DNA of 64,000 bases, taken from the IMG/VR virus record IMGVR_UViG_3300025000_000058. One strand, 5' to 3'. This stretch comes from a virus (Duplodnaviria; Heunggongvirae; Uroviricota; Caudoviricetes). The notes under the pieces are model-generated. The model worked only from the letters and a program-made list of their open reading frames with translations, searched no databases and was not told where the DNA came from. This document shows, one piece after another, positions 96-55,802 of the stretch. Numbering within the stretch: position 1 is the stretch's first letter; every line of letters begins with the position of its first letter. Position numbers and translations under genes: made by a program.

Positions 96-170
96 AATGC
101 TTAATACAAGGCTTAAATTATTGATTGTTATTGTTTATGGATAATTTAAGCCTTCAATAAACATTCTTTT
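96..170. repeat. intergenic long hairpin element, B-type (stem AAGGCTTAAATTA / TAATTTAAGCCTT)
   Basis: Inverted repeat 108-120 pairs with 142-154. The conserved flanks AATGCTTAATACAAGG ... CCTTCAATAAACATTC are shared with elements at 366, 5367 and 7935. Confidence 0.6.
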
Positions 171-176
171 ATTTTT

Positions 177-332
177 TTATTTTCTTAAATCGTTAAGTAT
201 ATTCATAGCAATGATAATCATAAGTAAAATCACTTCATTGTTTGTAGGATTATTATTAAAAAATTTAATTGTACCACCTACAAGAACCCCAAATAAACAA
301 ATACCAGTTATTGTTTTAATATAACTCATCAT
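177..332 (-). CDS. small hydrophobic protein (51 aa), hypothetical
   Basis: ATG at 330-332 with GGAGG about 11 nt upstream; stop at 177-179. Flanked by two B-type hairpins. Not in the ORF track because it is under 60 aa. Confidence 0.3.
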   Translation of the reverse strand: MMSYIKTITGICLFGVLVGGTIKFFNNNPTNNEVILLMIIIAMNILNDLRK

Positions 333-365
333 TATTTAAATACCTCCTTTATTATTTTAAAATAA

Positions 366-420
366 ATACTTAATACAAGGCTTAAACATATTAGTAATTT
401 AAGCCTTCAATAAACATTTA
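366..420. repeat. intergenic hairpin element, B-type
   Basis: AAGGCTTAAA at 377-386 pairs with TTTAAGCCTT at 398-407. Flanks are the same as the element at 96-170. Confidence 0.6.
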
Positions 421-678
421 TTTTATACAGTCTATACATAACCATGCATCTTTATAAAAAAGCAAATCTACTGGCTTGCGACATGCTGTACAACATGGTT
501 TAAGAGTATATAGTTTACCTTTACAAATATAATTTCCTAATTGATAAACATTAGAATTATAAATACATTCAAACTTTAATATTTCTTCATTTGGTGGAGT
601 TTTCCGTTTATGTCCATAAGGTATTTGTCCTTTCCATTTTTTTTCATCTTCAGACCATAAATAATCTATTTTTGCCAT
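418..678 (-). CDS. Cys-rich zinc-ribbon protein, hypothetical
   Basis: 86-aa ORF with CxxC...CxxC pairs (CCTAC, CIDC). RBS CCTCC complement lies upstream. Confidence 0.45.
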   Translation of the reverse strand: MAKIDYLWSEDEKKWKGQIPYGHKRKTPPNEEILKFECIYNSNVYQLGNYICKGKLYTLKPCCTACRKPVDLLFYKDAWLCIDCIK

Positions 679-696
679 TGTATACTATACCCCTCC

Positions 697-804
697 TTAC
701 ACTTGTTTAATATCTTGTATATACCTTTGCTTGCAAATATTAATATGCTTAGGACTGTTACGACACTTATTTAAAAACAGACAACTAAAACATTTAGTGA
801 ACAT
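697..804 (-). CDS. small Cys-containing peptide (35 aa), hypothetical
   Basis: ATG at 802-804 preceded by GGAGGTATAATT; stop at 697-699. Confidence 0.25.
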   Translation of the reverse strand: MFTKCFSCLFLNKCRNSPKHINICKQRYIQDIKQV

Positions 805-837
805 AATTATACCTCCTATTATTTTTATTTTGTAAAA

Positions 838-906
838 CAAAAAGCCTTTATAATAAGCATTTACCTAATTGCATTTTGGCAGTAAATGCTTACATAAAAA
901 CTTCTT
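838..906. repeat. intergenic hairpin element, A-type (AAAGCCTTTA...palindrome...AAAAACTTCT)
   Basis: AAGCATTTAC pairs with GTAAATGCTT. Conserved outer flanks are shared with more than 10 other elements. Confidence 0.55.
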
Positions 907-918
907 AATATTTTGTTT

Positions 919-2388
919 TTATGCTAATTTTCTTTTTTGCAGGTATGCAAGTAATTCTTGGTAATTAAAATCATTAGCATAATTTATAATTGATTTCCAT
1001 GTTAAAGCTTGAATATGTTGAATATCTGTATTCCTTATTATATCTAATAAGGTTTGACAAAATTGCAATGTTGCGACAAATGTTTCATATTTCAATGTAC
1101 CTCTGAAAATACGTATTTCTACTGTGTTAAAAGGTTTTAAGTTTATGGCATGGAATCTTGAAGTGTCAGAATCTTTTGCTACTTCAAGCAATTCTTTTGC
1201 ATCATCTTGTGTATTATTAAGAATATTAAATCCGTATCTGTCACAATATTCCAGTTGTTTTTCTGTTCTACGTGAAAATTTAACAAACTTATTCCAATGC
1301 ATTTCTACAACAAGCAATAATTTTAATATATTTAGGTCTTGTTTATCCTCAGAAATTCCAAAAGCTTCTTTATTAATATGAATATGCAGACCACATGTTT
1401 CACAATCATGTGATTTATAATTCAAATCAATAGCTTCTTCCATTAATTCCTGCCACTTAAATTCTTTTAGGTGTTTTTCCAATGTTGCTGGATGACTAAC
1501 AATTTCAAAACCATCATCTATTGAAGCATCATTCTTAATATAAATATGATCTTCATCGTTATCATTCATTATGTCAAGCAATTTACTAGCATTTTCTTTG
1601 TCATCTCCTCCATTATCAATTTCCAGTTCAACACCAAAAAGGTCTAATTCGTTTTTGGTGTTTCTGTGAAATATAGGTTCTGGTTTATATGAATAATTAT
1701 GTATTTTACCCTTGTGTTTTGGATAGCATTTGTCACAATAATCTTCCCAGTCAATTTGATTTCTTCCATTGTTTCCATTGCACCAACAACCACAATCACT
1801 ACATCTTACTATGCTCTCATGGCATGAGTTACAAATGACTGTATTATAACTGTCACTATTACCTTGATCATCATTGTAAACATTGCCACACTCTTCACAC
1901 TTAAATGTATTATTGCTAAAACAATGTGAACAATAACAATTTTCATTATGGTCTTTTTTCTTATCATCAACGTGTGTTATATCTTCACAATGATAACAAG
2001 TAAAATAATTATCACCATAACAATCATTACAAACAAAAGTATGTCTGTCAATTTGTGTCATATCATCTTTTAAATGGTATTGATCGCATTCTTTGCACTG
2101 TTTATAGTTATCATTCAAACATTCTTCACAAACATAAACATACTCGTTACTTCCTCCAACATCTGTCATATCATTGGTTATAAAATATTCACCACATTCT
2201 GTACATTCTGTATAATTTTCTAAGCACTCTTTACATACTTTGTCACCAGAGTTTACAACTGTTAAAAAATTGTCAAATTTCCTGTTTCCACATTCTTCAC
2301 ATACACCAATAGCAAATAATTTAAGCTCTGTATGTCTTTGAATTATGTTTTTGCTGGGAATTAATTTCTTGTATTTCATTAGACACAA
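919..2388 (-). CDS. zinc-ribbon array fused to a GS-like amidoligase (Amidoligase_2 family)
   Basis: The N-terminal 230 aa hold more than 12 CxxC pairs. The C-terminal half carries GVELE (metal-binding strand), DDGFEIVSHP, CGLHIHI (the GxHxH hallmark) and EIRIFRGT, which are diagnostic of glutamine-synthetase-like amidoligases. Confidence 0.7.
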   Translation of the reverse strand: MCLMKYKKLIPSKNIIQRHTELKLFAIGVCEECGNRKFDNFLTVVNSGDKVCKECLENYTECTECGEYFITNDMTDVGGSNEYVYVCEECLNDNYKQCKECDQYHLKDDMTQIDRHTFVCNDCYGDNYFTCYHCEDITHVDDKKKDHNENCYCSHCFSNNTFKCEECGNVYNDDQGNSDSYNTVICNSCHESIVRCSDCGCWCNGNNGRNQIDWEDYCDKCYPKHKGKIHNYSYKPEPIFHRNTKNELDLFGVELEIDNGGDDKENASKLLDIMNDNDEDHIYIKNDASIDDGFEIVSHPATLEKHLKEFKWQELMEEAIDLNYKSHDCETCGLHIHINKEAFGISEDKQDLNILKLLLVVEMHWNKFVKFSRRTEKQLEYCDRYGFNILNNTQDDAKELLEVAKDSDTSRFHAINLKPFNTVEIRIFRGTLKYETFVATLQFCQTLLDIIRNTDIQHIQALTWKSIINYANDFNYQELLAYLQKRKLA

Positions 2389-2427
2389 CCTCCTGTTATA
2401 TTGATATTTTAAATTTACAGACTTTTT

Positions 2428-2504
2428 AAAAAGCCTTTATACTGCACACTAATATGTTAATATGTTGGAATTAGTGTACAGATTAAAAACTTCTTTTAAT
2501 TATG
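2428..2504. repeat. intergenic hairpin element, A-type
   Basis: CTGCACACTAAT at 2443-2454 pairs with ATTAGTGTACAG at 2471-2482. The right half is copied again at 2650-2682. Confidence 0.55.
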
Positions 2505-2649
2505 ATACTTAATATGTCCTTCTGTATCAATTTCCATATATTTGAATTTATTTTTACTATTTATACTAATATATACTTTTGTCCCTACATCATCAGTTCC
2601 TAAATATTCCCATTTTGCAGTATCAATTTTAATCATTTTATACCTCCTT

Positions 2650-2682
2650 AGAATTAGTGTACAGATTAAAAACTTTTTACTT
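2650..2682. repeat. partial copy (right half) of hairpin element 2428-2504
   Basis: GAATTAGTGTACAGATTAAAAACTTTT duplicates 2468-2494. Confidence 0.5.
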
Positions 2683-3051
2683 TTTATTAATTATATATTT
2701 TTCATAACACTTATCACAATATATTTTTCCTTTTCCATCATCTCCTGTTTTTTCAACGTGCATTTTTTCACCACAATAAAGACATTTAACATGGTTAATT
2801 CTGAATGGATTAACGCATCTTTTTGCAAAATTCCATTTACATTCATTGTCATCAATTCCTAAAGCATCAAATAATTTCATTCTTAACACATTTAATTCCG
2901 CACTTGTCCCATACGTTTCTTGCAATTCTTGAACATGTTCAATTAATAATTCTGCCTTGTCTCTTTTTACTAACATTAAATTTGTTTCTGCAAGCACTGA
3001 AGATAATACATTTCCCAATTCTACATTGTTTTTATTATTGTTGTTTTCCAT
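2677..3051 (-). CDS. hypothetical protein with C-terminal zinc ribbon
   Basis: 124-aa ORF. CLYCGEKMH...CDKC near the C-terminus. Good RBS context. Confidence 0.45.
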   Translation of the reverse strand: MENNNNKNNVELGNVLSSVLAETNLMLVKRDKAELLIEHVQELQETYGTSAELNVLRMKLFDALGIDDNECKWNFAKRCVNPFRINHVKCLYCGEKMHVEKTGDDGKGKIYCDKCYEKYIINKK

Positions 3052-3080
3052 TAATAAAACCTCTTTTCGTATTTTATTTT

Positions 3081-3153
3081 GTTAAAGCAAAAAGTTTTTA
3101 GAATGGATATTTACTGTGATAACAATAAGTAAATATCCATGTTAAAAACTTCT
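3081..3153. repeat. intergenic hairpin element, A-type
   Basis: GGATATTTACT pairs with AGTAAATATCC. Flanks are GTTAAAGCAAAAAGTTTTTAGAAT and ATGTTAAAAACTTCT. Confidence 0.55.
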
Positions 3154-3154
3154 T

Positions 3155-3595
3155 TTAATATTTCTTATCTCCAAACAATGCACACTGAATAATTATATTA
3201 CACATTTCATCAGTGTATAATGTTTCGTCAGAAAGAAAATAATTATACTTTTCCATATATACTTTTAAACCTTTTTTTAATTTTACGAGTGTTAAGGTAT
3301 ATTTTTCCACATTATCTTTATATTCATTTTTAACATCTTGAAATAACAAACTGCCACCAGCGACAAGAATTAATGTAGGGTTATTTGATTCTAAATTCAA
3401 TCTAAGACACATTTCTTGCTCTTTTTTTGGCAATTTTTTGGTAGGCTGTTTAATAATTTCAATATTATTGCACCAATATTGTTTACTTTTGTTAATTCCT
3501 TTTTTCATAATACGATTAATATCGAATAAATTTATAAAACTACTCACTTTTACCTTTATTTCATAGTCTGTAAACATATTAAAACCTCTTTTCAT
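3155..3595 (-). CDS. hypothetical protein
   Basis: 146-aa ORF in a same-strand array. RBS AGAGG upstream. Confidence 0.4.
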   Translation of the reverse strand: MKRGFNMFTDYEIKVKVSSFINLFDINRIMKKGINKSKQYWCNNIEIIKQPTKKLPKKEQEMCLRLNLESNNPTLILVAGGSLLFQDVKNEYKDNVEKYTLTLVKLKKGLKVYMEKYNYFLSDETLYTDEMCNIIIQCALFGDKKY

Positions 3596-3605
3596 ATTAT
3601 TATTT

Positions 3606-3676
3606 TGTTAAAGCAAAAAGTTTTTAGAATAGACACTTCGAATTAAATAATAAAGTGTCTATGTTAAAAACTTCTC
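3606..3676. repeat. intergenic hairpin element, A-type
   Basis: ATAGACACTT pairs with AAGTGTCTAT. Outer flanks are identical to the element at 3081. Confidence 0.55.
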
Positions 3677-3698
3677 TTTACCTTATGTGTTTATTATA

Positions 3699-4097
3699 TT
3701 AAAAATTATCATAATACTCTCTCCAATCACCACTTTCTATTTTGTTACACCTGTCTAATATGTCATAGTTAAGAATATAAACATATGCCAATATTGTTAT
3801 ACCCTCATTATCAAACACTTCTTTTAATTCCCTGTGATATCCTGCACCTGATTCAATACGATCCAATTCTTTTAATATTGTTTCAAAATATTCAGGTAAA
3901 ATATAATATAATTCGCCATGTATTTTACCTTTTCCTGGTATAATGCCAGGATAAGTCCATAATTCATACATGTCAAATCCTTGTAAGATAGCTTTTTTCA
4001 TTTCTGAAAAAATGTTTCGAATTCTGAAGTGATTACCAAAACCTTGCATCAGTGAACCATACATAAATAATGGATATTGTTTTTCAGTTTTTTTCAT
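3699..4097 (-). CDS. gamma-glutamyl cyclotransferase-like (GGCT/AIG2 family) protein
   Basis: N-terminal PLFMYGSLMQG (the YGSL motif) and a downstream acidic LDRIESG segment about 75 aa later, typical of GGCT/AIG2. 132 aa. Confidence 0.65.
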   Translation of the reverse strand: MKKTEKQYPLFMYGSLMQGFGNHFRIRNIFSEMKKAILQGFDMYELWTYPGIIPGKGKIHGELYYILPEYFETILKELDRIESGAGYHRELKEVFDNEGITILAYVYILNYDILDRCNKIESGDWREYYDNF

Positions 4098-4122
4098 TAA
4101 TAAAACCTCCTGTTTTTAATTT

Positions 4123-4189
4123 TAAAGCCTTTAGAATAGATACTTGTATAATATACAATATTATACAAGTATCCAGTGTTAAAAGCTTT
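4123..4189. repeat. intergenic hairpin element, A-type
   Basis: GATACTTGTATAAT pairs with ATTATACAAGTATC. Flanks are AAAGCCTTTAGAAT and CAGTGTTAAAAGCTTT. Confidence 0.55.
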
Positions 4190-4384
4190 TCATAATGTTG
4201 TTTTTAATCCTAATTGATTTAATAAATTCTTTATACTTTTTATATGCTGGTTTGGTTCTGCTTCTTGATCATCCACTAATATCCCTACTTTATCTCTCAT
4301 AGATTTTAACTTCATAATTCTTAAATTTAATTCTTCTTCTATTACATATAAATCATACTTAGATAAAATAATTTTATATTCCAT
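4190..4384 (-). CDS. hypothetical small protein
   Basis: 64-aa ORF with RBS. Confidence 0.35.
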   Translation of the reverse strand: MEYKIILSKYDLYVIEEELNLRIMKLKSMRDKVGILVDDQEAEPNQHIKSIKNLLNQLGLKTTL

Positions 4385-4412
4385 GAATAAAACCTCCTGT
4401 TTAATTTTTATT

Positions 4413-4484
4413 TTAAAGCTTTTAGAATAGACATATTAACATTATTATTAATAATTATTAATATGTCCAGTGTTAAAAGCTTCT
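4413..4484. repeat. intergenic hairpin element, A-type
   Basis: The outer stem AAAGCTTTT/AAAAGCTT and an inner stem GACATATTAA/TTAATATGTC are separated by an internal loop. Confidence 0.55.
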
Positions 4485-4745
4485 TTACACTCTTCTTCCT
4501 TTACTATATCCATCAAAATATTCATTTCCAGAATTAATGTTATTCTCTGTAATAAAATCATAACCCATATTTGACATCCATTTGATCATAGTCATTTTGG
4601 GATATCCTGTAAATATACCAGTTATAGGTATTTCTTTACTTGAAAATTGATAATAAGGTACATCATCTTTAAACCCCATAAATAACAGTGTCGTGAGTTT
4701 TGTTACTCTGTTTTTGAAAATCAGACATTTGTTTCTTTTATACAT
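4485..4745 (-). CDS. hypothetical protein
   Basis: 86-aa ORF. Confidence 0.35.
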   Translation of the reverse strand: MYKRNKCLIFKNRVTKLTTLLFMGFKDDVPYYQFSSKEIPITGIFTGYPKMTMIKWMSNMGYDFITENNINSGNEYFDGYSKGRRV

Positions 4746-4843
4746 ATGAAAACCTCCTTTTAATTTGAAAACCTTACATTAACAAGTATGCTAAATGTTA
4801 AAAATAAATGTTTCTAATGTTTTCATTTATTCAATTGCTCATT

Positions 4844-4903
4844 GTTAATGAATAAAGCCTTTAGAATAAGCATTAACAATAATTTTGTTAATGCTCAGTG
4901 TTA
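4844..4903. repeat. intergenic hairpin element, A-type
   Basis: AAGCATTAACAA pairs with TTGTTAATGCT, inside conserved flanks. Confidence 0.55.
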
Positions 4904-4909
4904 AAAGCC

Positions 4910-5326
4910 TTATTTAATTATGGTTGTTAAAGCTTCATAATATAAATCAGCTAACATTTCCTTTATATCTTGACAATCTTTTCTTATATACCCTTTTCTA
5001 TTTGAAAATTTTCCTTTAATTTGTAGATCTATTCCATGCTGAAGGTCTGGTGTAATAATAACCTGAAAATCAATCCATCCATCATAAAACCCATTATCAT
5101 CCATAACATGATAAAAACTATTAATTGTTATTTTATTCCTGTTTGATTTTTCCATGTTAATACTATTACCACTATCAATACCACTGCCAGAAGGTAAAAA
5201 AGATATTAGCGTTCTTAAATTATCTCTATGCTCTTCGGTTACTTCTTTGTCCATGTCTACCATTTTTTCACAATTTTTTACTGCTTGAATTCTCATAGCA
5301 ATTTTTACATATAATTTTTCTGTCAT
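4910..5326 (-). CDS. hypothetical protein
   Basis: 138-aa ORF. Confidence 0.4.
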   Translation of the reverse strand: MTEKLYVKIAMRIQAVKNCEKMVDMDKEVTEEHRDNLRTLISFLPSGSGIDSGNSINMEKSNRNKITINSFYHVMDDNGFYDGWIDFQVIITPDLQHGIDLQIKGKFSNRKGYIRKDCQDIKEMLADLYYEALTTIIK

Positions 5327-5366
5327 TATTAAAACCTCCTGTTATAGTTATATTTTTTAACATAAT

Positions 5367-5426
5367 ACTTGATACAAGGCTTAAACATATAAAATAATGC
5401 AGTGTTTAAGCCTTCAACAAATATTA
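5367..5426. repeat. intergenic hairpin element, B-type
   Basis: CTTGATACAAGGCTTAAAC ... GTTTAAGCCTTCAACAAATATT. Confidence 0.55.
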
Positions 5427-5428
5427 TA

Positions 5429-5743
5429 TTAACTTGTATAAGTATATACTTTTACACCATCACCACAATCAGACATTTTTACCATAATACCAGAAAAATA
5501 AGTCTGTGAAGAATAACCAGAAAATTCTTGCATCCACTCAGGAGCATTTTTTTCGACACGCATAATTTCACTTAAAAAATAGGTATTTCCTTCATGTTCA
5601 AAACAAGCTTCAAATTCCTGTTCGTCTTCTGGTTTATCTTTTTCCCACTCAGGTATTTTATAATCTATTTCTATATATTCATCATCTCCATAAATTTTTA
5701 TAGTGCTATTTTCTTGGTCAATTGTTTTCCATAATTTACTCAT
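5429..5743 (-). CDS. hypothetical acidic protein
   Basis: 104-aa ORF. Confidence 0.4.
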   Translation of the reverse strand: MSKLWKTIDQENSTIKIYGDDEYIEIDYKIPEWEKDKPEDEQEFEACFEHEGNTYFLSEIMRVEKNAPEWMQEFSGYSSQTYFSGIMVKMSDCGDGVKVYTYTS

Positions 5744-5777
5744 AAATAAAAACCTCCTGTTATATTAAAATTTTTAA

Positions 5778-5846
5778 TTTAATTCCTTTGTAAAATACCC
5801 TCTCACTAATAGGATACTTTACAAGGGAATTAAACCCTTGTTTATT
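5778..5846. repeat. intergenic hairpin element, C-type (CCTTTGTAAA...CTTTACAAGGGAATTAAACCCTTG)
   Basis: AATTCCTTTGTAAA pairs with CTTTACAAGGGAATT, followed by a second small hairpin CAAGGG/CCCTTG. Same architecture as the element at 6222. Confidence 0.5.
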
Positions 5847-5847
5847 G

Positions 5848-6192
5848 TTATAATCCCTTTTCTAAAATGTCACCTATGCAACCTAAGCGAAGCTTACTCT
5901 TGTAGAATAATATTGTAGTTGTATAAGTGTCCCCTGCATTAATATATTGTACTTCTTCTGGATCTGTTATACCTTCAACACCAAAAAATGAACCCCTATT
6001 ACAATGAGTGTTTAACACTTTATCAATATCTTTTAACCAGTCTGCAATAGCATGAGAAGGATGATGTCCCTGTATATGATAATCTTTCCATGATTTTTTA
6101 ATGCATATTTCCCTTAATTCTTTTACTCCTTCCTTTGTTGTTATAGACAGATCATTTGCACACTGTTTAAAATTCTTTTGATTTATTACCAT
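5848..6192 (-). CDS. hypothetical protein
   Basis: 114-aa ORF. Confidence 0.4.
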   Translation of the reverse strand: MVINQKNFKQCANDLSITTKEGVKELREICIKKSWKDYHIQGHHPSHAIADWLKDIDKVLNTHCNRGSFFGVEGITDPEEVQYINAGDTYTTTILFYKSKLRLGCIGDILEKGL

Positions 6193-6221
6193 GTTAAAAC
6201 CTCCTGTTAAAATTTAATTTA

Positions 6222-6290
6222 AATACCTTGTAAAACTCCTTTTTATAATAGTGTTAAAGAAGCTTTACAAGGGATTTAAATCCCTTGTTT
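6222..6290. repeat. intergenic hairpin element, C-type
   Basis: TACCTTGTAAAA pairs with CTTTACAAGGGA, followed by the GGATTTAAATCCC palindrome. Confidence 0.5.
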
Positions 6291-6650
6291 TATAACAGGT
6301 GACAAGTCTCCTTCTTCCTGCTGTTCAGGAGATAAGGGACATTTTATAAATAAGGATGATTCTAAAGTATGAATAAATAAACCCTTGCATAAGAATACAC
6401 CTTTATTTCTAGCACTTGGTACATTCTGGAATTCAATTAAAGTATAACCTGCACGTAACAATTTAAGAGAATAAGACAATGGTGCAACAATGGCAATGGT
6501 TTTTTCTGAGGTAATAGATTGAATTTGATTGATGATGTCATCGTTAAAGGTTACATTATGTTGCTTTATATTGGCAATACCTAAACTTTCCAATGTTTTT
6601 ACTTGACCATTTGTTAAAGCATGACGAGATAACCAGATTAATATTTTCAT
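6276..6650 (-). CDS. hypothetical protein
   Basis: 124-aa ORF. Confidence 0.4.
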   Translation of the reverse strand: MKILIWLSRHALTNGQVKTLESLGIANIKQHNVTFNDDIINQIQSITSEKTIAIVAPLSYSLKLLRAGYTLIEFQNVPSARNKGVFLCKGLFIHTLESSLFIKCPLSPEQQEEGDLSPVIKQGI

Positions 6651-6683
6651 TATTAAAAACCTCCTGTTTTATTATTGGTTAAT

Positions 6684-6748
6684 TTTAAAGCAAAAATGCT
6701 TTAATCAGGACATATTTATTTTATAATGTCCTGTTTAAAACACTCTTT
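6684..6748. repeat. intergenic hairpin element, A-like
   Basis: CAGGACAT pairs with ATGTCCTG. Flanks are TTTAAAGCAAAAATGCTTTAATC and GTTTAAAACACTCTTT. Confidence 0.5.
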
Positions 6749-6981
6749 TAGTAAATCATAATATATTCTTTTGGATATTTTAAACAATAGGAAATAATGT
6801 TTAGTTCTAACCATTTCCATCCCTGGGAAGGTATGTAAACTAATTCTTTATATCCTATATAATTATTTATCCAGCATTCTATAGAAATTATGCAAGGATT
6901 AGTACGTTTTTTAAATTCCTCCCATTCTTGGTCTGATATTTTAGGGAAATTCAACTTTAATAATATAGGTTGTTGTGTCAT
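6748..6981 (-). CDS. hypothetical protein
   Basis: 77-aa ORF. Confidence 0.35.
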   Translation of the reverse strand: MTQQPILLKLNFPKISDQEWEEFKKRTNPCIISIECWINNYIGYKELVYIPSQGWKWLELNIISYCLKYPKEYIMIY

Positions 6982-7018
6982 AATTGTAAAACCTCCTATG
7001 TTATATTTAAAACCTTAA

Positions 7019-7085
7019 CAATAGGTACAATTAATTTAAACTCTTTAAAACAAGTCTATTAATTGTACCTATGTTTAAAATTTTA
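7019..7085. repeat. intergenic hairpin element (D-type), copy 1 of a 75-bp near-identical repeat
   Basis: Perfect 13-bp arms AGGTACAATTAAT / ATTAATTGTACCT. About 95% identical to 8629-8704. Confidence 0.6.
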
Positions 7086-7092
7086 AATAATG

Positions 7093-7500
7093 CTATCCTT
7101 CAATTTGCTCAATGTCAAAGTTATCAAAAACCTTATGAAGCTTTTCACCTTGTCGCAAACAAGCTTTATATATTTTCAGATTTTCAGAATTTTCTGCATC
7201 ATAATCAAAATCATTGCAAAAACTGGTATATGTTGGGTAATATTCTTCAGTATAATAGAAATCTGATTTAATGCAAGCCATAACGGAATAGTACAGGTTT
7301 TCAGGATATATTATACCATTTTCTGTATTATTAATAGAATCATAAAACTTAAAGCCACATTTGGCTTTTGTTTCTTGGTTGGTACATGTTACACGATAGA
7401 CATTCCTTAAACTAGCTTCTTGCCATGTAGGATGAAATTCTTCTGCAATAAAGGTAATAGTAACCTTGATGTTATTGTGCATTTTTTGAAAATTTTTCAT
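7093..7500 (-). CDS. hypothetical protein
   Basis: 135-aa ORF. Confidence 0.4.
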   Translation of the reverse strand: MKNFQKMHNNIKVTITFIAEEFHPTWQEASLRNVYRVTCTNQETKAKCGFKFYDSINNTENGIIYPENLYYSVMACIKSDFYYTEEYYPTYTSFCNDFDYDAENSENLKIYKACLRQGEKLHKVFDNFDIEQIEG

Positions 7501-7530
7501 TTTAAAACCTCCTGTTTATTATTGTTTAAT

Positions 7531-7612
7531 TTAAATCAAAAAATGTTTTAATCATGGCATTTTATTGTCTGTTATAAGATTATAAATGCCATGTTTAAAA
7601 CATTCTTAGTTA
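7531..7612. repeat. intergenic hairpin element
   Basis: CATGGCATTT pairs with AAATGCCATG, inside flanks AAATCAAAAAATGTTTTAATC and GTTTAAAACATTCTT. Confidence 0.5.
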
Positions 7613-7950
7613 TTTTTATTCTGATTTCTAAAATAATCTTTTTCATACCATGATGTATATTGTTCTTTTGTTACATACTGTACATAATACCTATCTTTAT
7701 TATAATAAGGTTTTTTAGTACAGATATTAATATTTTTTTGATCTGTTCTGTTTTTTGCGTTGTCTTCAACTATACAAGCTTCAGAGTAAGAGCTACATTC
7801 AAAAACAAGCTTGTTAATTTTTCCCTTTGCTTTACCCCAACCAGACATAAATTTGTCAGTCATTGTTACATAATACTTTTTATTTTCTGGCATTGTTAAA
7901 AACCTCCTGTTATTATTGTTTAATTTTAAATCAAAAAATGCTTGATACAA
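7606..7950 (-). CDS. hypothetical protein
   Basis: 114-aa ORF. Confidence 0.4.
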   Translation of the reverse strand: MYQAFFDLKLNNNNRRFLTMPENKKYYVTMTDKFMSGWGKAKGKINKLVFECSSYSEACIVEDNAKNRTDQKNINICTKKPYYNKDRYYVQYVTKEQYTSWYEKDYFRNQNKNN

Positions 7951-8003
7951 GGGTTAAACAAGTAAATAATTTAACCCTTCAACAAACATTCTTTTACCTA
8001 TGC
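7935..8003. repeat. intergenic hairpin element, B-type with compensatory stem change
   Basis: The stem is AAGGGTTAAA / TTTAACCCTT here, against AAGGCTTAAA / TTTAAGCCTT in the other B-type copies. The C-to-G change on one arm is matched by G-to-C on the other, which preserves pairing. Confidence 0.6.
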
Positions 8004-8308
8004 ATAGTGTTATGCAAGTTTATTAATGGGTCTCTTTGTGCAATTTCTTGGAATTCACCCCTTCTGTTTAATCTTGCCATGCATTCTAAATATTTGTAAC
8101 CTGCCACATAGCCTTTATTAAAACCTTCATTTATTACAGAATATGCCATATTAAATTCTTCTGATTCTATAAAGGAAAAATGCATTCTTACTAATAATGG
8201 TTGGATATTGTCAAATGTTACATATTTCATACTAGATAATATTGCCTTTGTTGTTACTTCAACATGTTTCATTGACATATTTTCTGATATTATAGCTTTT
8301 CTTGCCAT
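7994..8308 (-). CDS. hypothetical protein
   Basis: 104-aa ORF. Confidence 0.4.
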   Translation of the reverse strand: MARKAIISENMSMKHVEVTTKAILSSMKYVTFDNIQPLLVRMHFSFIESEEFNMAYSVINEGFNKGYVAGYKYLECMARLNRRGEFQEIAQRDPLINLHNTMHR

Positions 8309-8326
8309 ATAAAAACCTCCTGTTTA

Positions 8327-8379
8327 AATTATTCGCAAAAACTCACTTGTTATTGTTAAGTGAGTTTTTGCGAATAATT
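8327..8379. repeat. perfect 22-bp-arm hairpin between stop codon and next RBS
   Basis: AATTATTCGCAAAAACTCACTT (loop GTTATTGTT) AAGTGAGTTTTTGCGAATAATT. It starts at the stop codon of 8378-8599 and no U-run follows it on the coding strand. Confidence 0.6.
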
Positions 8380-8599
8380 AAATAAGCCATAATTTCCTTA
8401 ATTCATTAAATATTGCTAGTTTTGTATTTTTACCTGTAAGGTCTGCATATAAACCAATAATGCCAGCCAGATCATCATCTCCTTTTTTAATTCTTTCCAT
8501 AACTTGGTCTAAATGGTGATAATTAACAGCCCTTTGATTAACTTTATAAAATTTCTCAGGATTATTAAAGGACATAACTTTTTTAGTCGCATTGTTCAT
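8378..8599 (-). CDS. hypothetical protein
   Basis: 73-aa ORF. Confidence 0.35.
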   Translation of the reverse strand: MNNATKKVMSFNNPEKFYKVNQRAVNYHHLDQVMERIKKGDDDLAGIIGLYADLTGKNTKLAIFNELRKLWLI

Positions 8600-8628
8600 A
8601 GTGTTTAAAACCTCCTGTTAATTATTAT

Positions 8629-8704
8629 AAAACCTTAACAATAGGTACAATTAATTTAAACTCTTTAAAACAAGTCTATTAATTATACCCATGTTTAAAA
8701 TTTT
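8629..8704. repeat. intergenic hairpin element (D-type), copy 2, degenerate stem
   Basis: Near-identical to 7019-7085, including the loop, but the right arm is mutated (ATTATACCC). Confidence 0.55.
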
Positions 8705-9227
8705 ATAACAAATGCTTATCTCTTTTATTGTCTTTTTCCTTTTTGGATTTTTTTGATTCTATTTTTTCAGATCCATAGATATTCCTAATTTTTTCCATTG
8801 GTATTGATTTTCTCCATTTTTTAGTTGTTTGGTCTTCAGAACACCAACTCCATAATTTTTTCTTACTTCTCCATATTAATCCAATTGCTTTTAATTCTTC
8901 CTTAATGGGCTTAGTTATTCCTCCTACCCACAGCCAAGAACCGCATATTTCTATTTCCAAGTCTTGGAATTTTAATAATGCATCAATAACTTCCCTGAAA
9001 AAATCATTAACATTGTGATTGTTAACATTAATAAATTCTTCACCAGACATTTTAATGTCTTTTAAATATTCGAAGGCTATTTCATAGTCTAAATTAATTC
9101 GCTTCATAATTTCCAGACACTTAGGGTCGCTGTTTAAATCAGGATGATACAATTTTGCAAGCTGTCTGTATTCCTTTTTCAATTCTACCAAGTTTTTACA
9201 TGATTTGAAGAATGTTAAATTTTTCAT
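8703..9227 (-). CDS. J-domain (DnaJ-like) protein
   Basis: ELKKEYRQLAKLYHPDLN contains the HPD tripeptide in a canonical J-domain helix II/III context. The C-terminus is lysine-rich. Confidence 0.75.
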   Translation of the reverse strand: MKNLTFFKSCKNLVELKKEYRQLAKLYHPDLNSDPKCLEIMKRINLDYEIAFEYLKDIKMSGEEFINVNNHNVNDFFREVIDALLKFQDLEIEICGSWLWVGGITKPIKEELKAIGLIWRSKKKLWSWCSEDQTTKKWRKSIPMEKIRNIYGSEKIESKKSKKEKDNKRDKHLL

Positions 9228-9257
9228 AGTATAAAAACCTCCTGTTATTCTTTAATT

Positions 9258-9423
9258 TTAATTTTAAAATGCTTTTTAAAACCATTATTAAAAGCTTTAT
9301 TGCCTACACTTTTTTATATATGGATTAAAACAACATTTTTATTAAAATGCTCTTAGTTATCCATAGTCTAAGCAAATGCTAGCTTAAAACAATTATACAA
9401 TGATTTTAAAAAGCATTTTAATA
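9258..9423. repeat. long-range perfect inverted repeat (16 nt arms) bounding the start of the non-coding region
   Basis: AAAATGCTTTTTAAAA at 9260-9275 and its reverse complement at about 9404-9419, separated by roughly 125 nt. Confidence 0.45.
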
Positions 9424-10613
9424 AATGCCTTTTGCTTCTCATTGTCATAGGAAAAAACTATCTTTTTAAATATCAGAAGAATATAAAACAGTAAAATGTA
9501 CATTATAGCTGATTTAGTATAATGTTATATTTTACAAAATATTCTCTGTGATTTTTTCAAGTTTTTTGCAGGTTGTTTTTACTTAGAGTTAAAGCCAACA
9601 ACCATAAAACAGACTTAAAGAAGCAAAAAAGCATTTAGTTATAAAATGCTTTAGGTATTACTTTTTGATTCGTTTTAGAGGTTTTTTATTGGTTTTTGTA
9701 TTTCATTTCCATTTAATAACTACTGCCATTATCCGAAGTTTTCATTAAGATAAGTAACAATCTTTACTAAAAAACTGTAAAACATACTCAAGTATACCTT
9801 AATAAATGCTTCGAACATGCTAAATATTTTGCCGTATCAGTTTAACAAGTCTAGTTATTTCACTTATTCCAAGGCTACTAATTAACAGAGTATCCCAACC
9901 AACGAAAAACAGTATTCTTGCCATTGCCAGTTCATTTAGTGGCAATTTAAATTCTCTAACAATTTCCTGTTTTCTGGAAAATGAAGTCCTTCTCTTTTAA
10001 CGGAGGAAGGGACTTTTGTTAATTTTCGCCTTGTATTTTAGCTTTTGTTAGACTTGTTTTTTTCCAATTATGTATAATTCATTCCTATACATAACCGACC
10101 ACGGGAGTATCCTACTTGAAAGGCTTTGAACCCCTCTTTGTTTCTCCAATGGATTTAGAACGATATCCCAATTGTTGACAACGCACGTTCCACAAGCTCT
10201 ATATAGTTATGAGTTTATCAAGATCCCTCCTTTGGTATTATGCACCCCTTCGACATTCCGCAGGCTTAACTTTTCAGTAAAATTTTTCGTCCTAGAGTGA
10301 GACTTCCCACTTTTTGGAATACTCCTTTTTACCTGTCTTGGGTAAACCACTCCCAAGCATTTTATAAAACCTTCGACTGCCAGCCTTCCTGCCCACATAC
10401 ACATGCTTATGTATGCTACTCCAAGTCAAAAAAGGTTTTTTGATTTGTCTTACACTAAGAGTATACGCAAAAACTTTAAAACTTATGCATGATATTTTAT
10501 GATATTTTTAATTCTCTTCCTCTTTTCTTACTCCCACTTGTGGCTCCCCTGCCACACGCATAATATAACATATCTAAAAAATAGAATCTAACCTGATATA
10601 ATGCCATATTAAG

Positions 10614-10690
10614 CGAATTTAAAATATTAGCTTGCATTTGCTTAATATAGCTTTTGAAATCAGCTTTTTTCGTGAATTTAAAATATTAGC
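10614..10690. repeat. two direct 20-bp repeats GAATTTAAAATATTAGCT
   Basis: Copies at about 10615-10634 and 10670-10689. Followed by an AACCCTTACA...TGTAGGGTT hairpin and a T-run at 10699-10735 (terminator-like on the plus strand). Confidence 0.4.
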
Positions 10691-11224
10691 TATTTAAAAA
10701 ACCCTTACATAATGCGGGTTGTAGGGTTTTTGCAAAAAGTTTAAAAATTAAAATCAAATAAAAATTATGTTTTTTTGCTGATTATTTTAATAATCATTTT
10801 AAGGCTTTTTTAGACAGGTAAAAATGCTTGTAGGATATAACATACTTGATTTAATTTTGTCCTGCCTTAAACGGGCTTAAATTAAGGTTTAAATTGATTT
10901 TATAAAGATAGGGAAAAGGTATAATTTTAATGTGAGTTTAAAAAGCTTATTTTAAGGCTTATTTGAGAAGGTTTTTTGTTGGTAGCAGGTTTTTATATTT
11001 AGCATGGCAAAAAGTAAGCTTAAACCGCATTGTAGAAGGTTTAAAAGGTATTTTATAGGCAGGGAAAATATTATTACTTCTATTAGAAGGAAAAAAAGAA
11101 AAGCGATCCAGTGTTGCCGTCCCAACAACACACATATTTTTATTACGTTTTTTACTTGTATGACTACAAAAAATTCTCTCTCCCAGTTGGTTGTTTGGAA
11201 AATGAGAATGGTTCTCATTAATAC

Positions 11225-11400
11225 ATTACATAGTATTCATTACTACTTCACATAGTAACATATAATATAATTTTCAATACCACATAATATATCATATAGT
11301 ATTCATTTCTATTATAATAGTAATATATAACATAGTATTAATTATTCTATAACATATCATATAGTATTAAAAACTACTTTATATATTACCATGTAGCATA
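11225..11400. repeat. iteron-like direct repeats (CATAGTATT core, at least 5 copies)
   Basis: ACATAGTATTCATT, TCATATAGTATTCATT, ACATAGTATTAATT and TCATATAGTATTAAAA recur within 180 bp. Confidence 0.5.
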
Positions 11401-11557
11401 TTCCATATTATTATATTACATAATTTTAAATACTATATTCAATTCTGAATATTTTGAATTTATTGAATTATTTTATTTTTAAAACAGGTAAAAAGACAAT
11501 TATAACAAATGCATAAATTATATTATTTTGCGTTCTCTAACATCAATAAAGTAAAGT

Positions 11558-12021
11558 TAAAATTGATTTTAAAGCTATTAGAAGCTTCATACAGACACGA
11601 AAAGCTTTTTAGGTATTAAACCATTGGCAAAAAATTATACATAGGTTGTAGAGCAAATATCATGTACCAATGATTCTACAAGGGAAAATTCACTCTTGAC
11701 AAATGCTAAATATTATGATTCGCTGATTATTTTATGCATTTATCAGAATATTCTATTTATTTATGAATGGCACGTTTTTTGCTAATTCAAAAAGTATGCC
11801 AATAGAAAATAGCAAAAAATTATTGATTTTTTAATCAAAAGTTAAAATCAATTTTAAGGCTTATATAAGCTTCATAGAGAGGAATTAATACTTTTAGGTA
11901 TTAAACCATTGCTTACGCAAATTTCGCTGAATACAGACGATCCAACAATTAACAACCTTGTACCAATGATTATATAAGGGTTTTTTGCCTATTGACAAAT
12001 TAAAAATATTATGATTCGCTA
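11558..12021. repeat. two copies of a composite ~170-185 bp unit, each ending in a promoter-like TTGACA-17 box whose -10 hexamer is replaced by TTCGCT
   Basis: Unit 1 is about 11558-11724 and unit 2 about 11836-12021. Shared blocks are GATTTTAARGCTTAT, AAGCTTCATA.AGA, CTTTTAGGTATTAAACCATTG, TGTACCAATGATT and TTGACAAAT...AAATATTATGATTCGCT. A third partial unit lies at 12640-12780. Confidence 0.55.
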
Positions 12022-12099
12022 CATAGCGAAAAGGATAATTAGTTTTAATTGATTTTAGCATAAATCAGCGAAAAGAATTAATGGCATGATTTATGCAGA

Positions 12100-12600
12100 T
12101 ATATTTGATTATTAATATATTTAATTATCCATATATAATGGTTTTAATATACATGAAGAATATAATATAGTGATATACATATATTTGAATTATATAATAT
12201 ACAGATATTCATATATAGTATGATTAATATATAGTGATATTATTCTATATAATAATTAATATATAGTGATAATTAAATATTTGATAAATATAATATATAA
12301 ATATTCATATATACATTATTTAATATATACAGATAATTAAATATATTATATTTATAATATACAGATAGTCGAATATTCAAATATTATTATATACAATTAA
12401 CATTATATATTAATTATAATATATTTAATGATTATATTATACAATAAATAGTATATATTGATATTCAAATATTCAATATTTATAATATAATGATATTCAT
12501 ATATATAATTATCTATATATGGAATTATTTGAATATATAATTATTCGTATATTTGAATAATATATATGTATCATTTAATACAATTAATTGTCTCATATCA
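12100..12600. repeat. AT-rich degenerate tandem repeat block (ATATATAGTGATA / AATATTCATATATA / ATACAGATA motifs)
   Basis: About 500 bp at over 85% A+T, built from short reiterated motifs. Candidate DNA-unwinding element. Confidence 0.5.
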
Positions 12601-12797
12601 TACAATATGCATAATTCATGCCAGTATGATATGATACATTTTTTATTTTATAGCTGAATAGCTTTTAAAGTGATTTTAAGCTTCATATAGAGGGCTGAAT
12701 ACTTTTAGGTATTGTATGAGGTAAAATTATTTTTTGTGGCTGTATGAAGCTTATATAAAGAGGTGAAATAATTAGATATTATTTGATTTAATTAATA

Positions 12798-12890
12798 AAA
12801 TTAGTGTATTAGTATGCTAGTACACTTAAAACAGTAGTGTCTGACTATGCAAACAGATAATTAAATTAGTGTATTAGTACGTTAGTACAC
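12798..12890. repeat. two direct copies of a 28-bp palindrome-containing site (AAATTAGTGTATTAGTAYGYTAGTACAC)
   Basis: Copies at 12798-12825 and 12863-12890. Each holds a GTGTATTAG...CTAGTACAC inverted repeat. Confidence 0.55.
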
Positions 12891-12939
12891 CCAACGGAAC
12901 CGAAGGTGTAGTCTTTCAGCTTGCCTCTATCGTTACCCA

Positions 12940-13135
12940 TAACGAACAATGTTCCACGTGGAACTATTCCGCTATTCCGCAATTGCGTATGTCAGTTAAA
13001 AATTCTAATATTACGGAATAACGGAGCATCGTAACACTTCATAAATTACGTGATTCCGTAATGTCGTAATTATTACTTATTTCCGTTATTCCGTTCTTAC
13101 GTAATTTCGTAATCTATCCGTCCCTGCTTCAACTA
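12940..13135. repeat. cluster of CpG-containing short palindromes and TTCCG repeats (GTTCCACGTGGAAC, TTACGTAA, TTCCGYTATTCCG)
   Basis: A perfect 14-bp palindrome GTTCCACGTGGAAC lies at 12951-12964. TTCCGCTATTCCGC, CGGAATAACGGAG and TTCCGTTATTCCGTT are also present, plus several TACGTAA and CGTAAT sites. In a genome this AT-rich the clustering is highly non-random. Confidence 0.55.
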
Positions 13136-13164
13136 TTCCTGATAATATACATTATCAATAATAT

Positions 13165-13290
13165 TATAATGATTATCATTATCACTCTACATATAGTATA
13201 TTTCTCTTGTCAAATATCTATATATAGATTTTACCCGTATGACATACTATATATAGATTATTTTTAGCTTATACATACTATATATAGGGG
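13165..13290. repeat. three direct repeats of CTATATATAGATT(T)
   Basis: ATATCTATATATAGATTTT, CATACTATATATAGATTATTTTT and CATACTATATATAGGGGG. Confidence 0.45.
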
Positions 13291-13362
13291 GTACTTTACA
13301 CATTGGAAATAATTTCCATCGCCAGGGGATGCCCTAGCACTTAAACCCCGACACTACGTGTC

Positions 13363-13560
13363 GAACTATACAACTATACAACTATACTATTTACTTTATA
13401 CTTACTTTACAATCAATTAACCAACTTCTAACTTCTAACCAACTAACTAACCTCTCAATCAACTAATCACTTAACTATACAACTAAAACTTACCAATGTA
13501 ACATCAAATTATAACATTTAACATTATACCACTTATAAAATAACTAACTAAAAATCAGAT
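13363..13560. repeat. strongly G-depleted (plus strand) low-complexity tract with tandem AACTATAC and AACTTCTA repeats
   Basis: About 190 nt containing only 2 G residues. Includes (AACTATAC)x3 and (AACTTCTA)x2, AACTAACTAACC. The complementary strand is correspondingly C-free. Confidence 0.6.
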
Positions 13561-13860
13561 TAACCACGAAAAATTTTTGGGTTTAAATCACCTGAGAAGG
13601 GAAAATATGCCCTAAAATGACGGTTTTTTTATCGAACTATCTTCCTTTATTTAAAACGAATTATGACTACAACCTTAATAATTATATAAGGTATACAATT
13701 TTCACAACTGATATTTATATTATATCATTAATTAAACTGTCAATCAATTAATTTATTAATAACGGGGGCTATCTTTACACCACACTATACATTATACATA
13801 ATAATAAAATTTCTATCGAAATTTTCTTAGTTTTTTTTCTTGGTGTGATAATATATAGGG

Positions 13861-13890
13861 TTGACAAGGTTTATTCGTATTTTCTACAAT
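13861..13890 (+). promoter_or_regulatory. sigma-70-like promoter (TTGACA-17/18-TACAAT) pointing antisense toward the rep-like gene
   Basis: TTGACA at 13861-13866 and CTACAAT at 13884-13890. The downstream plus strand is antisense to 14068-14829. Confidence 0.4.
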
Positions 13891-14019
13891 ACGTATTGGT
13901 ATTTATATTGTAATATATATTGTAATATATACTATAATATATATAAATTTTTGTCATACACTCTCATATAGATATATCTCATCATAAACTGTTGGAGGTG
14001 TCATACAAATGTATCATAA

Positions 14020-14057
14020 AAATATACAAAAAAATAAACTGATATATAATCAGTTTA
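14020..14057 (-). terminator. rho-independent terminator of the minus-strand unit ending with 14068-14829
   Basis: On the minus strand the hairpin AAACTGAT-tatat-ATCAGTTT is followed by ATTTTTTTGTATATTTTT. Confidence 0.6.
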
Positions 14058-14067
14058 ATCATGTGTT

Positions 14068-55332: not shown

Positions 55333-55387
55333 TTTTATTCTTTATAATTTAATTTTAATCTGTATATAATTATAATCTGTATATACC

Positions 55388-55480
55388 GCTCTCAGGTCTC
55401 AAAACGGGAGCTGGCTCAGATCTCAGGTCTCAAAACGGGAGCTGAGTCGGAAAATTTTCAGTCTCAGGTCTCAAAAGTGG
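55388..55480. repeat. three direct 24-bp GC-rich repeats (TCTCAGGTCTCAAAACGGGAGCTG), iteron-like
   Basis: Copies start at about 55388, 55417 and 55456. Located 55 bp downstream of the initiator-like gene. Confidence 0.6.
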
Positions 55481-55589
55481 AAATGAGAACGGTGACTGTC
55501 AGAATGCGGGTTACAGGGTTTTTTATAATAAACTTTGACAATTTTAGATTTATTTATAAATAAGTAAAATAAAAAAGGAGATAATAAAT

Positions 55590-55802
55590 ATGGCAAAAAT
55601 ATTTTGTTGTGATAACTGTAATAGTATAGATTTGAATAAAATTGGAGAAGAAAAAAGAAACCAACATAGAACTGAAGAAAGTGGTTGGTTTGGTCTTGGT
55701 GGGAGTTGGAGTACGATGTATTATTCACATTATAATTTATATGGCAAATATAAATGTAATAAATGCGGTTATGAATTTGATGAATTAGAATATAGCTGTT
55801 AG
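55590..55802 (+). CDS. zinc-ribbon protein
   Basis: CCDNCNS...CNKCG. 70 aa. GGAG RBS. Confidence 0.45.
   Translation: MAKIFCCDNCNSIDLNKIGEEKRNQHRTEESGWFGLGGSWSTMYYSHYNLYGKYKCNKCGYEFDELEYSC

Follow-up and report, generated by a model that had tools for sequence, protein, structure and literature searches.

Interrupted hairpins between the small genes of a promoterless phage gene array as selected RNA structures and candidate processing sites

Introduction

The first 9.4 kb of IMG/VR virus record IMGVR_UViG_3300025000_000058, a Caudoviricetes sequence analysed here as a stretch of 64,000 nucleotides (the window), raises the question of why nearly every gene should be separated from the next by a long imperfect hairpin. 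A previous interpretation, made from the letters alone (the sequence-only reading), had proposed that these hairpins function as RNA structures on the transcript, as RNase III-type processing sites rather than terminators. The analysis described here firmly supports the hairpins as selected RNA structures of the sense transcript, built to a standard two-part design and located inside a gene array that lacks internal promoters. A role in dividing the transcript into gene-sized segments is proposed below and weighed against other explanations, and a second role, at the DNA level, was missed by the sequence-only reading: the gain, loss and reordering of gene cassettes between relatives breaks at the elements.

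The window has a G+C content of 26% and derives from a large phage, its genes including those for an NAD-dependent ligase, NAMPT, PhoH, a RecD-like helicase and homing endonucleases. Bastille-like and SPO1-like Bacillus phages have proteins with about 61% identity to one of 682 aa in the window, and marker genes are common to these phages and the phage of the window. All identical and related contigs come from groundwater metagenomes. No tRNA reaching threshold was found in the window. Between 1 and 9.3 kb, every gene is small, lies on the minus strand and carries a full AGGAGGT Shine-Dalgarno sequence (ribosome-binding site), and the spacers are about 100 nt long, compared with 10-30 nt between the genes at 14-52 kb. 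The array occupies 9.4 kb of the window and about 16.6 kb of the complete phage. Contig L018, from the same phage, continues the design of one hairpin per gene for at least 8 kb further to the left of window position 1. Taken together, the window and L018 contain at least 33 elements in a row, one per gene, belonging to at least five sequence types.

A two-part hairpin in almost every spacer

Eighteen spacers between positions 90 and 8712 each contain one dominant hairpin (E01 to E18, all on the minus strand). Folding z-scores lay between -4.6 and -10.8 for all 18, and none of 200 dinucleotide shuffles was equally stable. When an 80-nt fold was slid along the whole window, about 24 minus-strand sites reached -22 kcal/mol or lower, and 18 of these fell in the array spacers, which make up 15% of the window. 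Chance palindromes were ruled out by the z-scores together with the covariation described in the next section. The earlier statement that a hairpin lies between nearly every gene therefore holds for 18 spacers, but not for the spacer at 679-696, which has no hairpin, or for that at 2637-2676, which has a 5' arm only.

The geometry of the elements is alike across unrelated sequence types. Across 39 elements of all types, the duplex measures 18-36 bp (median 26 bp) and is interrupted by a mismatch or internal loop (1x1 to 4x3) at a median of 13 bp from the base, followed by an upper stem that also has a median of 13 bp. An interruption in mid-stem is present in 38 of 40 elements, and the apical loops comprise 3-26 nt. 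The lower stem is rich in A-U and G-U pairs and the upper stem is of free sequence. The elements also occupy a constant place between the genes: relative to the upstream stop codon, the base of the stem ranges from -13 to +14 nt and is often at 0-1 nt, and the stem ends 6-33 nt ahead of the next ribosome-binding site, E09 (4852-4912; z -8.3) being exceptional with an unusually long distance of 92 nt. Elements of this design have both the duplex of about 20 bp or more (two helical turns) and the internal loop or bubble in the stem that characterise RNase III sites.

The flank types A, B and C were found as the sequence-only reading had described them, and to these are added types A' and D and one unique stem. 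The A-type comprises, besides E09, two variants, E03 (836-908; -25.9 kcal/mol on the minus strand vs -15.2 on the plus; z -5.9; 64 bits with the A-type covariance model; 3' end CUUUUUGUUUU) and E04 (2424-2497; 12 bp, a 2x2 loop and 12 bp; -24.8 vs -11.4 kcal/mol; z -6.7; 75 bits; 3' end UUUUU), together with E05 (3085-3157; 12 bp, 2x2 and 13 bp; -25.1 kcal/mol, z -8.3; 3' end UUUUUGCUUU), E06 (3612-3676; z -6.0), E07 (4122-4189; 10 bp, 4x3 and 18 bp; -28.8 kcal/mol, z -8.5) and E08 (4412-4484; -24.6 kcal/mol, z -8.0), neither E07 nor E08 having a U-run. A half element on the same strand (2651-2676) is a 25-nt direct repeat of the E04 5' arm. The A'-type is represented by E13 (6688-6750; 13 bp, 1x1 and 8 bp; -22.9 kcal/mol minus vs -14.4 plus; z -7.4), which shares the 3' end UUUUUGCUUU, and by E15 (7535-7610; z -8.4; 3' end UUUUUUGAUUU). 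B-type hairpins are E01 (90-176; 24 bp, made up of 10 bp, a 3x4 internal loop and 14 bp; -22.5 kcal/mol, z -6.5), E02 (352-423; -18.4 kcal/mol, z -4.6), E10 (5358-5428; z -6.0) and E16 (7930-7996; -24.4 minus vs -12.0 plus; 3' end UUUUUUGAUUU), whereas the C-type is found in E11 (5772-5847; z -5.7) and E12 (6212-6290; z -7.3). The 36-bp D-type element E14 (7000-7092; -32.4 kcal/mol, z -8.7) has a twin in E18 (8620-8712), and E17 (8320-8386; z -10.8) is the unique case of an uninterrupted, perfect 22-bp stem, again lacking a U-run.

Upstream of the first gene of the array lies a further structure on the minus strand, an irregular leader palindrome of 158 nt (9264-9421; -56.2 kcal/mol, z -8.9). 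It contains a TATAAT at 9397-9392 and matches the relative L011 in both orientations; a leader RNA, an antitermination element and a DNA site are all candidate roles for it.

Selection on the mRNA-sense strand

The sequence-only reading had drawn attention to a C-A mismatch in an outer stem of the plus strand that becomes a G-U wobble on the minus, coding strand. This point is real and was found to be general. The minimum-energy folds contain 54 G-U pairs on the minus strand and 13 on the plus strand, and when helices were defined with G-U pairs forbidden, the small symmetric mismatches of the minus strand comprised 21 G.T and only 4 A.C. The minus-strand fold was the more stable in 16 of 18 elements, and both the lower stem of the A-type and the stem of the C-type have two G-U positions that are conserved across sequences. 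The second copy of the duplicated D-type element, at 8629-8704, previously thought to carry stem-breaking mutations, proved to be intact on the coding strand: its A to G and C to U changes relative to E14 produce G-U pairs on the coding strand, where E18 folds with -32.6 kcal/mol as against -11.0 on the plus strand. Because of the minus-strand stability, the wobble asymmetry, the conserved G-U positions and the wobble-type changes in E18, the selected structure was assigned to the mRNA-sense strand.

Covariation, the test that had been named for these elements, was borne out in two independent alignments. For the first, 18 A and A' elements from the window, L018 and a 71%-related phage (L011, L013) were aligned by plain MAFFT and folded with RNAalifold, which returned a two-part stem with compensatory double changes in 12 of its 17 pairs. 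In this structure 90.5% of alignment cells were paired, compared with 73.4% in column shuffles (a level reached by 0 of 500), and 49 cells held double changes, compared with 16.2 in the shuffles; sliding the pairing partners lowered the paired fraction to 35-63%. The second alignment comprised 13 C-type elements including E11 and E12, nine of the 13 coming from other metagenomes, and gave 20 pairs, with compensation in 6. The GC to CG covariation noted earlier for the B-type stem at 7935 is likewise real and is a compensated pair of E16.

When the elements were compared one by one with L011, 29 changed pairs were still paired and 13 were broken, and 6 of the 13 broken pairs lie in the weak apical part of E15. 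Identity to L011 was 88-98% for the hairpins and 79-91% for the adjacent coding sequences, the hairpins being higher in all six comparisons (for E06, 98% vs 91% for the adjacent gene). The hairpins are under purifying selection and are more conserved than their flanking genes. The earlier proposal of a function as RNA structure on the coding-strand transcript is thus backed by the wobble asymmetry, by covariation in two alignments and by conservation above that of the neighbouring genes.

Absence of internal promoters and the question of termination

A strict promoter family, TTGACAA-N4-AAAATATTA-N3-TANAAT, with a conserved spacer sequence, occurs nine times between 33 and 64 kb of the window, where 0.23 occurrences would be expected by chance (33011, 40225 and 47440 on the minus strand; 52941, 54212, 60515, 60596, 60685 and 63846 on the plus strand). 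The array spacers contain neither this motif nor a consistent sigma-70 arrangement. A promoter hidden in the elements themselves was considered, since conserved TTAACA and TATTCT-like hexamers are present, but these stand 35-55 bp apart at variable distance and form neither a sigma-70 arrangement nor the phage motif. On the coding strand, no further perfect promoter is encountered until L018 16468, some 33 genes and about 16.6 kb downstream of where the array starts. The array looks like one long promoterless polycistronic unit. With no internal promoter over that distance, most of it would be silenced if termination were efficient at each element.

The sequence-only reading had also stated that no U-run follows the hairpins, and this was not upheld: E03, E04, E05, E06, E13, E15 and E16 end in CUUUUU(G) or AUUUUUUGAUUU. 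In these seven of the 18 elements a run of 5-6 U is flush with the G-C closing pair; four others have 4 U and the remaining seven (E07 to E12 and E17) have three or fewer. The residues of the U-run are paired with an AAGAAG-type run on the 5' side. The seven elements with 5-6 U probably terminate a fraction of the transcripts.

Terminators located elsewhere in the window (17.9, 18.1, 23.9 and 31.5 kb) are built differently, with uninterrupted stems of 8-17 bp and short loops followed by U5-6. They match the compact, uninterrupted G+C-rich terminator stem (about 5-14 bp with a short loop), which the elements do not, and no element was called as a terminator in a simple terminator scan. A d'Aubenton-Carafa-type score was dropped as a discriminator because even obvious terminators scored negative, making it uninformative in an AT-rich genome. 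The preference for RNase III sites over terminators finds support in the geometry, which is nearer to an RNase III substrate than to the terminators of the phage itself, but as worded it is not supported, seven elements having a terminator-grade U-run.

Exchange of gene cassettes between relatives

The gene order of the relative L011 is a mosaic of the cassettes of the window in a different order. Each block of homology begins at the leader and ribosome-binding site, takes in the gene and extends to the end of the downstream hairpin. Neighbouring blocks share about 24 nt of the conserved leader, and the breakpoints fall in the 3' flank of the hairpin or in the leader of the ribosome-binding site. 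At E04, a ribosome-binding site and a 46-aa open reading frame (ORF; 2496-2636) are bracketed by the full element and the 25-nt repeat of its 5' arm and are absent in L011; the stretch 2496-2676 looks like a cassette that was inserted at the apex of a hairpin. The same element marks a second discontinuity. Contig L016 (1-1481) matches the window with 97% identity, but the homology breaks off within the 3' arm of E04, at window position 2446, and beyond the junction the contig consists of DNA of 40% G+C with ORFs for Flp/Tad-like membrane proteins. The junction might be an assembly chimera or a real recombinant and, if real, might point to the host. Given conserved outer stems and leaders and differing inner stems, the elements act as homologous joints for the insertion, deletion and reordering of cassettes.

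Possible roles of the elements

The reading we favour, with about even credence, is that the elements segment the polycistronic RNA through a double-strand-specific nuclease and subsequent protection of the ends, in the manner of RNase III-type sites. One long mRNA, promoterless internally, would be divided into gene-sized segments by host RNase III cutting at or near the mid-stem interruption. The upstream cistron would retain a 3' duplex that blocks 3' exonucleases, while the downstream cistron would start just before a very strong Shine-Dalgarno sequence at which a bound ribosome could block 5' exonuclease, and each small gene would in this way gain a stability and translation of its own, independent of its neighbours. 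Partial termination at the U-run elements and the exchange of cassettes (ribosome-binding site, gene and hairpin) at homologous joints would be secondary roles. Structure, strand, covariation, conservation, geometry, promoter absence and mosaic breakpoints are observations, and we infer the cleavage, the enzyme and the stabilising effect. Several points weigh against this proposal. The cleavage is putative, in a phage known from groundwater metagenomes only; there is no RNase III gene among the proteins of the window (itself part of a genome of about 125-175 kb), so that a host enzyme must be assumed; the elements have no sequence similarity to the SP82/SPO1 sites; and the promoter driving the array was not pinpointed. 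Furthermore, E17 is without an internal loop, seven of the 18 elements resemble true intrinsic terminators in their U5-6 flush with the stem and their 5' A-run, and in the mosaic comparisons the hairpins move with the upstream gene, as terminators would.

The U-runs and the movement with the upstream gene are what would be expected if the elements were intrinsic terminators or attenuators, either stopping the polymerase with some probability, to give a decreasing gradient of expression along the array, or being overridden through processive antitermination, perhaps set by the 158-nt leader. Lambda N/nut, HK022 put and the Bacillus EAR element are the known antitermination systems with which such an arrangement would be compared. 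In keeping with termination, the hairpins begin at the stop codon, seven have the U-run directly after a G-C closing pair with a matching 5' A-run, and a strongly structured, conserved leader stands ahead of the array. Yet the seven elements with three or fewer U are equally conserved and structured, the stems are long (21-36 bp), interrupted near the middle and topped by loops that reach 19-26 nt, in contrast to the canonical uninterrupted 8-17 bp stems of the phage, no promoter follows any element over the 16.6 kb and 33 or so genes of the array, and neither an antiterminator protein nor an Rfam antitermination RNA was detected, leaving termination as the main function a possible but rather doubtful explanation. 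A further possibility is that the elements are mainly recombination joints in DNA, whether through homology like that of the promoter-early stem-loop (PeSL) motifs of T4-type phages or as an attC-like folded single-stranded substrate of a recombinase, with the RNA hairpin as a by-product. The mosaic order of L011 with breakpoints in the hairpin 3' flank or leader, the 46-aa ORF between the duplicated 25-nt arm and E04 that L011 lacks, the dispersed duplicates E14 and E18, and the end of L016 homology inside the E04 3' arm all speak for joints of this kind, as do the PeSL crossovers of RB49 and phi1, both T4-type phages, which were mapped in or beside the stem-loop (PMC2839356). The wobble bias and conserved G-U pairs nevertheless indicate selection on one folded strand, that of the mRNA, where integrons use the bottom strand; no GTTRRRY or RYYYAAC core is present in any type, no integrase lies beside the array, the only tyrosine recombinase (50503-51444) being about 41 kb away, and homology alone leaves unexplained both the perfect complementarity of unrelated inner stems and the two-part geometry common to all types. 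We consider it unlikely that DNA exchange is their main function.

The evidence of structure, strand and conservation would apply equally to passive barriers or insulators that involve no dedicated nuclease, protecting RNA from 3' and 5' exonucleases once it has been cleaved at other sites, in the manner of the selective RNA processing and stabilisation known for REP sequences in E. coli operons, and stopping ribosome sliding and re-initiation between cistrons. The stop codon at the base of the stem and the perfect ribosome-binding site after it would suit such a role, and intercistronic stem-loops that set differential stability have been documented genome-wide in E. coli (PMC10667835). For a barrier, though, any stable stem would suffice, and the conserved interruption about one helical turn from each end and the minimum of about 20 bp in 39 elements would go unexplained, so that this alternative appears very unlikely. 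The readings are not mutually exclusive: some of the elements probably attenuate transcription, and their part in cassette shuffling can be seen directly. A broader view, to which we give a low probability, is that the array is a phage analogue of the integron, a reservoir of orphan-gene cassettes, more than 30 in number and all promoterless, that are expressed from a single upstream start, in which each hairpin would be at once an RNA signal of the expression unit (for processing, stability or, in the C-type, switching) and a DNA joint for the capture, loss and reordering of cassettes. The variable inner stems would then keep adjacent joints from recombining too often. As a more speculative extension of this view, RNase III might also free the variable upper stems as small RNAs, as occurs with pri-miRNAs.

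C-type elements

The C-type elements have a feature of their own in AACAAGGG, which is invariant in 13 of 13 and stands right after the stop codon of whichever gene is upstream. It lies at 5836-5847 (within E11) and 6279-6290 (within E12) of the window and in loci L047, L050, L053, L055, L057, L059, L061, L062 and L064. Through its complementarity to CCCTTGT in the 5' arm, AACAAGGG allows a small hairpin that is incompatible with pairing at the base of the long stem, and since a terminating ribosome would cover AACAAGGG, the element may be a translation-sensing switch based on this alternative hairpin.

Comparison with known systems

The closest parallels, and a direct precedent in phages of Gram-positive hosts, are the early-mRNA targets of B. 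subtilis RNase III in phage SP82 (SPO1 group), stems with internal loops that receive a single, downstream cut, as do those T7 substrates that have an internal bubble (PMC1935012, PMC4838370). In one SP82 mRNA the half-life is shortened by mutation of the ribosome-binding site, as related in PMC7509114 with reference to Hue 1995. Like the SP82 and T7 sites, the elements are long stems with internal loops between small early genes of a phage, presumably on one polycistronic transcript, with a strong ribosome-binding site downstream. They differ from SP82/SPO1 in sequence, as the promoterless spacers of SPO1 carry another, GC-rich motif, GTTGCTAG...CATGGAGCC, which we infer to correspond to the SP82 sites. 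They differ also in arrangement, for SPO1 has promoters in most spacers and few such sites, whereas the array has one element per gene and no internal promoters.

In their relation to gene exchange the elements resemble PeSL cassettes, in which a conserved motif of about 100 nt flanks small orphan genes in a plastic region of T4-type phage genomes and has the ribosome-binding site at its end (PMC2839356, PMC4122927). A conserved stem-loop motif flanking orphan genes, with breakpoints of insertion and deletion between relatives, was found here as in PeSLs, but the sigma-70-type early promoter inside the motif is absent from the elements. PeSLs combine a strong sigma-70 promoter with a short, efficiently terminating G/C stem, as opposed to the promoterless, long, two-part, A/U-rich stem of the elements, and their hosts are Gram-negative, whereas the host of the window phage is probably Gram-positive. 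A likeness to integron attC sites is also apparent in a promoterless cassette array of one orientation, each cassette ending in an imperfect palindrome whose outer parts are conserved, whose apex varies and which includes an unpaired spacer. Identity with attC was rejected, as R''/R' cores (RYYYAAC ... GTTRRRY) are lacking on either strand of all types; the nearest likeness is GTTAAAAAC on the A-type plus strand, without a complementary AAC partner. Unlike in an integron, no intI or attI is adjacent and 4.6 kb of non-coding DNA lies upstream of the array, the mRNA-sense strand is favoured, and the breakpoints resemble homologous exchange in the leader and not a fixed G/TT crossover.

AT-rich palindromes after almost every gene of a large virus are also known from the Mimiviridae, where under the 'hairpin rule' they define mRNA 3' ends via hairpin cleavage (PMC4402537). 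Those are eukaryotic viruses with monocistronic polyadenylated mRNAs and a cleavage enzyme of their own, in contrast to the bacterial signals, polycistronic organisation and lack of an RNase III gene in the window. REP/BIME sequences are likewise repeated intercistronic palindromes able to protect upstream mRNA (PMC10667835), but they are 35-40 nt long, have a conserved GTAG/CTAC head and are spread across the chromosome by a RAYT transposase, none of which is shared by the elements. Identity with REP/BIME was rejected, since the elements have no GTAG/CTAC head and the Pfam lists covering 14-55 kb include no Y1 transposase.

Each of the two concepts is thus already known, RNase III sites from the early mRNA of phages and modular shuffling from regulatory cassettes that mediate it. 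What is new is the scale, with more than 30 consecutive elements at one per gene, the lack of internal promoters, a standard geometry common to at least five unrelated sequence types, and the combination of both roles. If the proposed role is correct, more than 30 accessory genes are expressed from one transcript and made independent of each other by RNA structure in place of promoters and terminators, a form of gene independence shown experimentally for only a handful of sites in T7 and SP82. The exchange of orphan genes between phages with their regulation left intact would be accounted for by such a standardised module of ribosome-binding site, gene and hairpin. Being short and portable, and available in at least five versions without cross-homology, the elements would be candidate insulator parts for synthetic operons in Gram-positive bacteria, as well as a natural test set for the rules of RNase III substrates outside E. 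coli.

Distribution of the elements

Matches of the A-type covariance model within the window were confined to 0.8-8.7 kb, and others were found in related contigs. Among 50,697 phage records, DNA similarity was limited to one gene in common with Brevibacillus phage Sundance. Sundance was rejected as a relative carrying the elements, its spacers holding ordinary terminators and a promoter-like motif, and the A-type model found no match in it or in the IMG/VR candidates. In SPO1 the model gave an unconvincing match in the terminal region (21.8 bits, E 0.52). Searches of IMG/VR anchored on proteins or using the C-type pattern were empty, and the matches obtained there with the A-type and B-type patterns were discarded as single chance matches without inner stems. 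The C-type pattern was more productive in the JGI metagenomes, with 25 loci of which about 12 were true orthologues on AT-rich contigs, none of them with A-type elements. A generic scan of related loci for 20-bp hairpins was too noisy for use.

No known RNA family could be assigned to the elements, as comparison of the window with Rfam gave 0 matches at the gathering score. Far below threshold, the sole resemblance was to eukaryotic pre-miRNA families, at 8318-8387, 6226-6274, 3090-3153, 5775-5843 and 6682-6755, a likeness of shape alone.

The array includes two paralogous amidoligase-domain proteins with zinc-ribbon repeats, encoded at 919-2388 of the window and at 10001-11563 of L018. Homologues of these proteins number thousands in metagenomes, many being fused to LIM or zinc-ribbon domains. 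The distant amidoligase-linked contigs L025 and L026 were considered as carriers of the elements and rejected, as they have ordinary short G/C terminators instead.

Further features of the window

Between the array and the next gene lie 4.6 kb without a credible ORF (9430-14067), which are 75-84% conserved in L011. This region contains 65-bp repeats (11215-11450), an AT-rich array with a 16/32-bp period (12100-12560), CGGAAT repeats in an island of higher G+C content (about 12880-13130) and short tandem repeats (13364-13466). It might function as an origin or in packaging, or might encode small RNAs. A conserved 51-nt unit is present within it in three minus-strand copies (11567-11617, 11852-11902 and 12663-12713), two of which are found some 60-100 nt downstream of a promoter-like site that is duplicated, as TTGTCA-18-TATAAT (11998) and TTGTCA-18-TAGAAT (11702); the units may be genes for small non-coding RNAs. 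At the other end of the window, three G+C-rich direct repeats of CTCAGGTCTCAAAACGGGAGCTG (about 55360-55500) occupy the spacer that precedes the gene at 55590-55802 and that for the RecD-like helicase, and have an iteron-like appearance.

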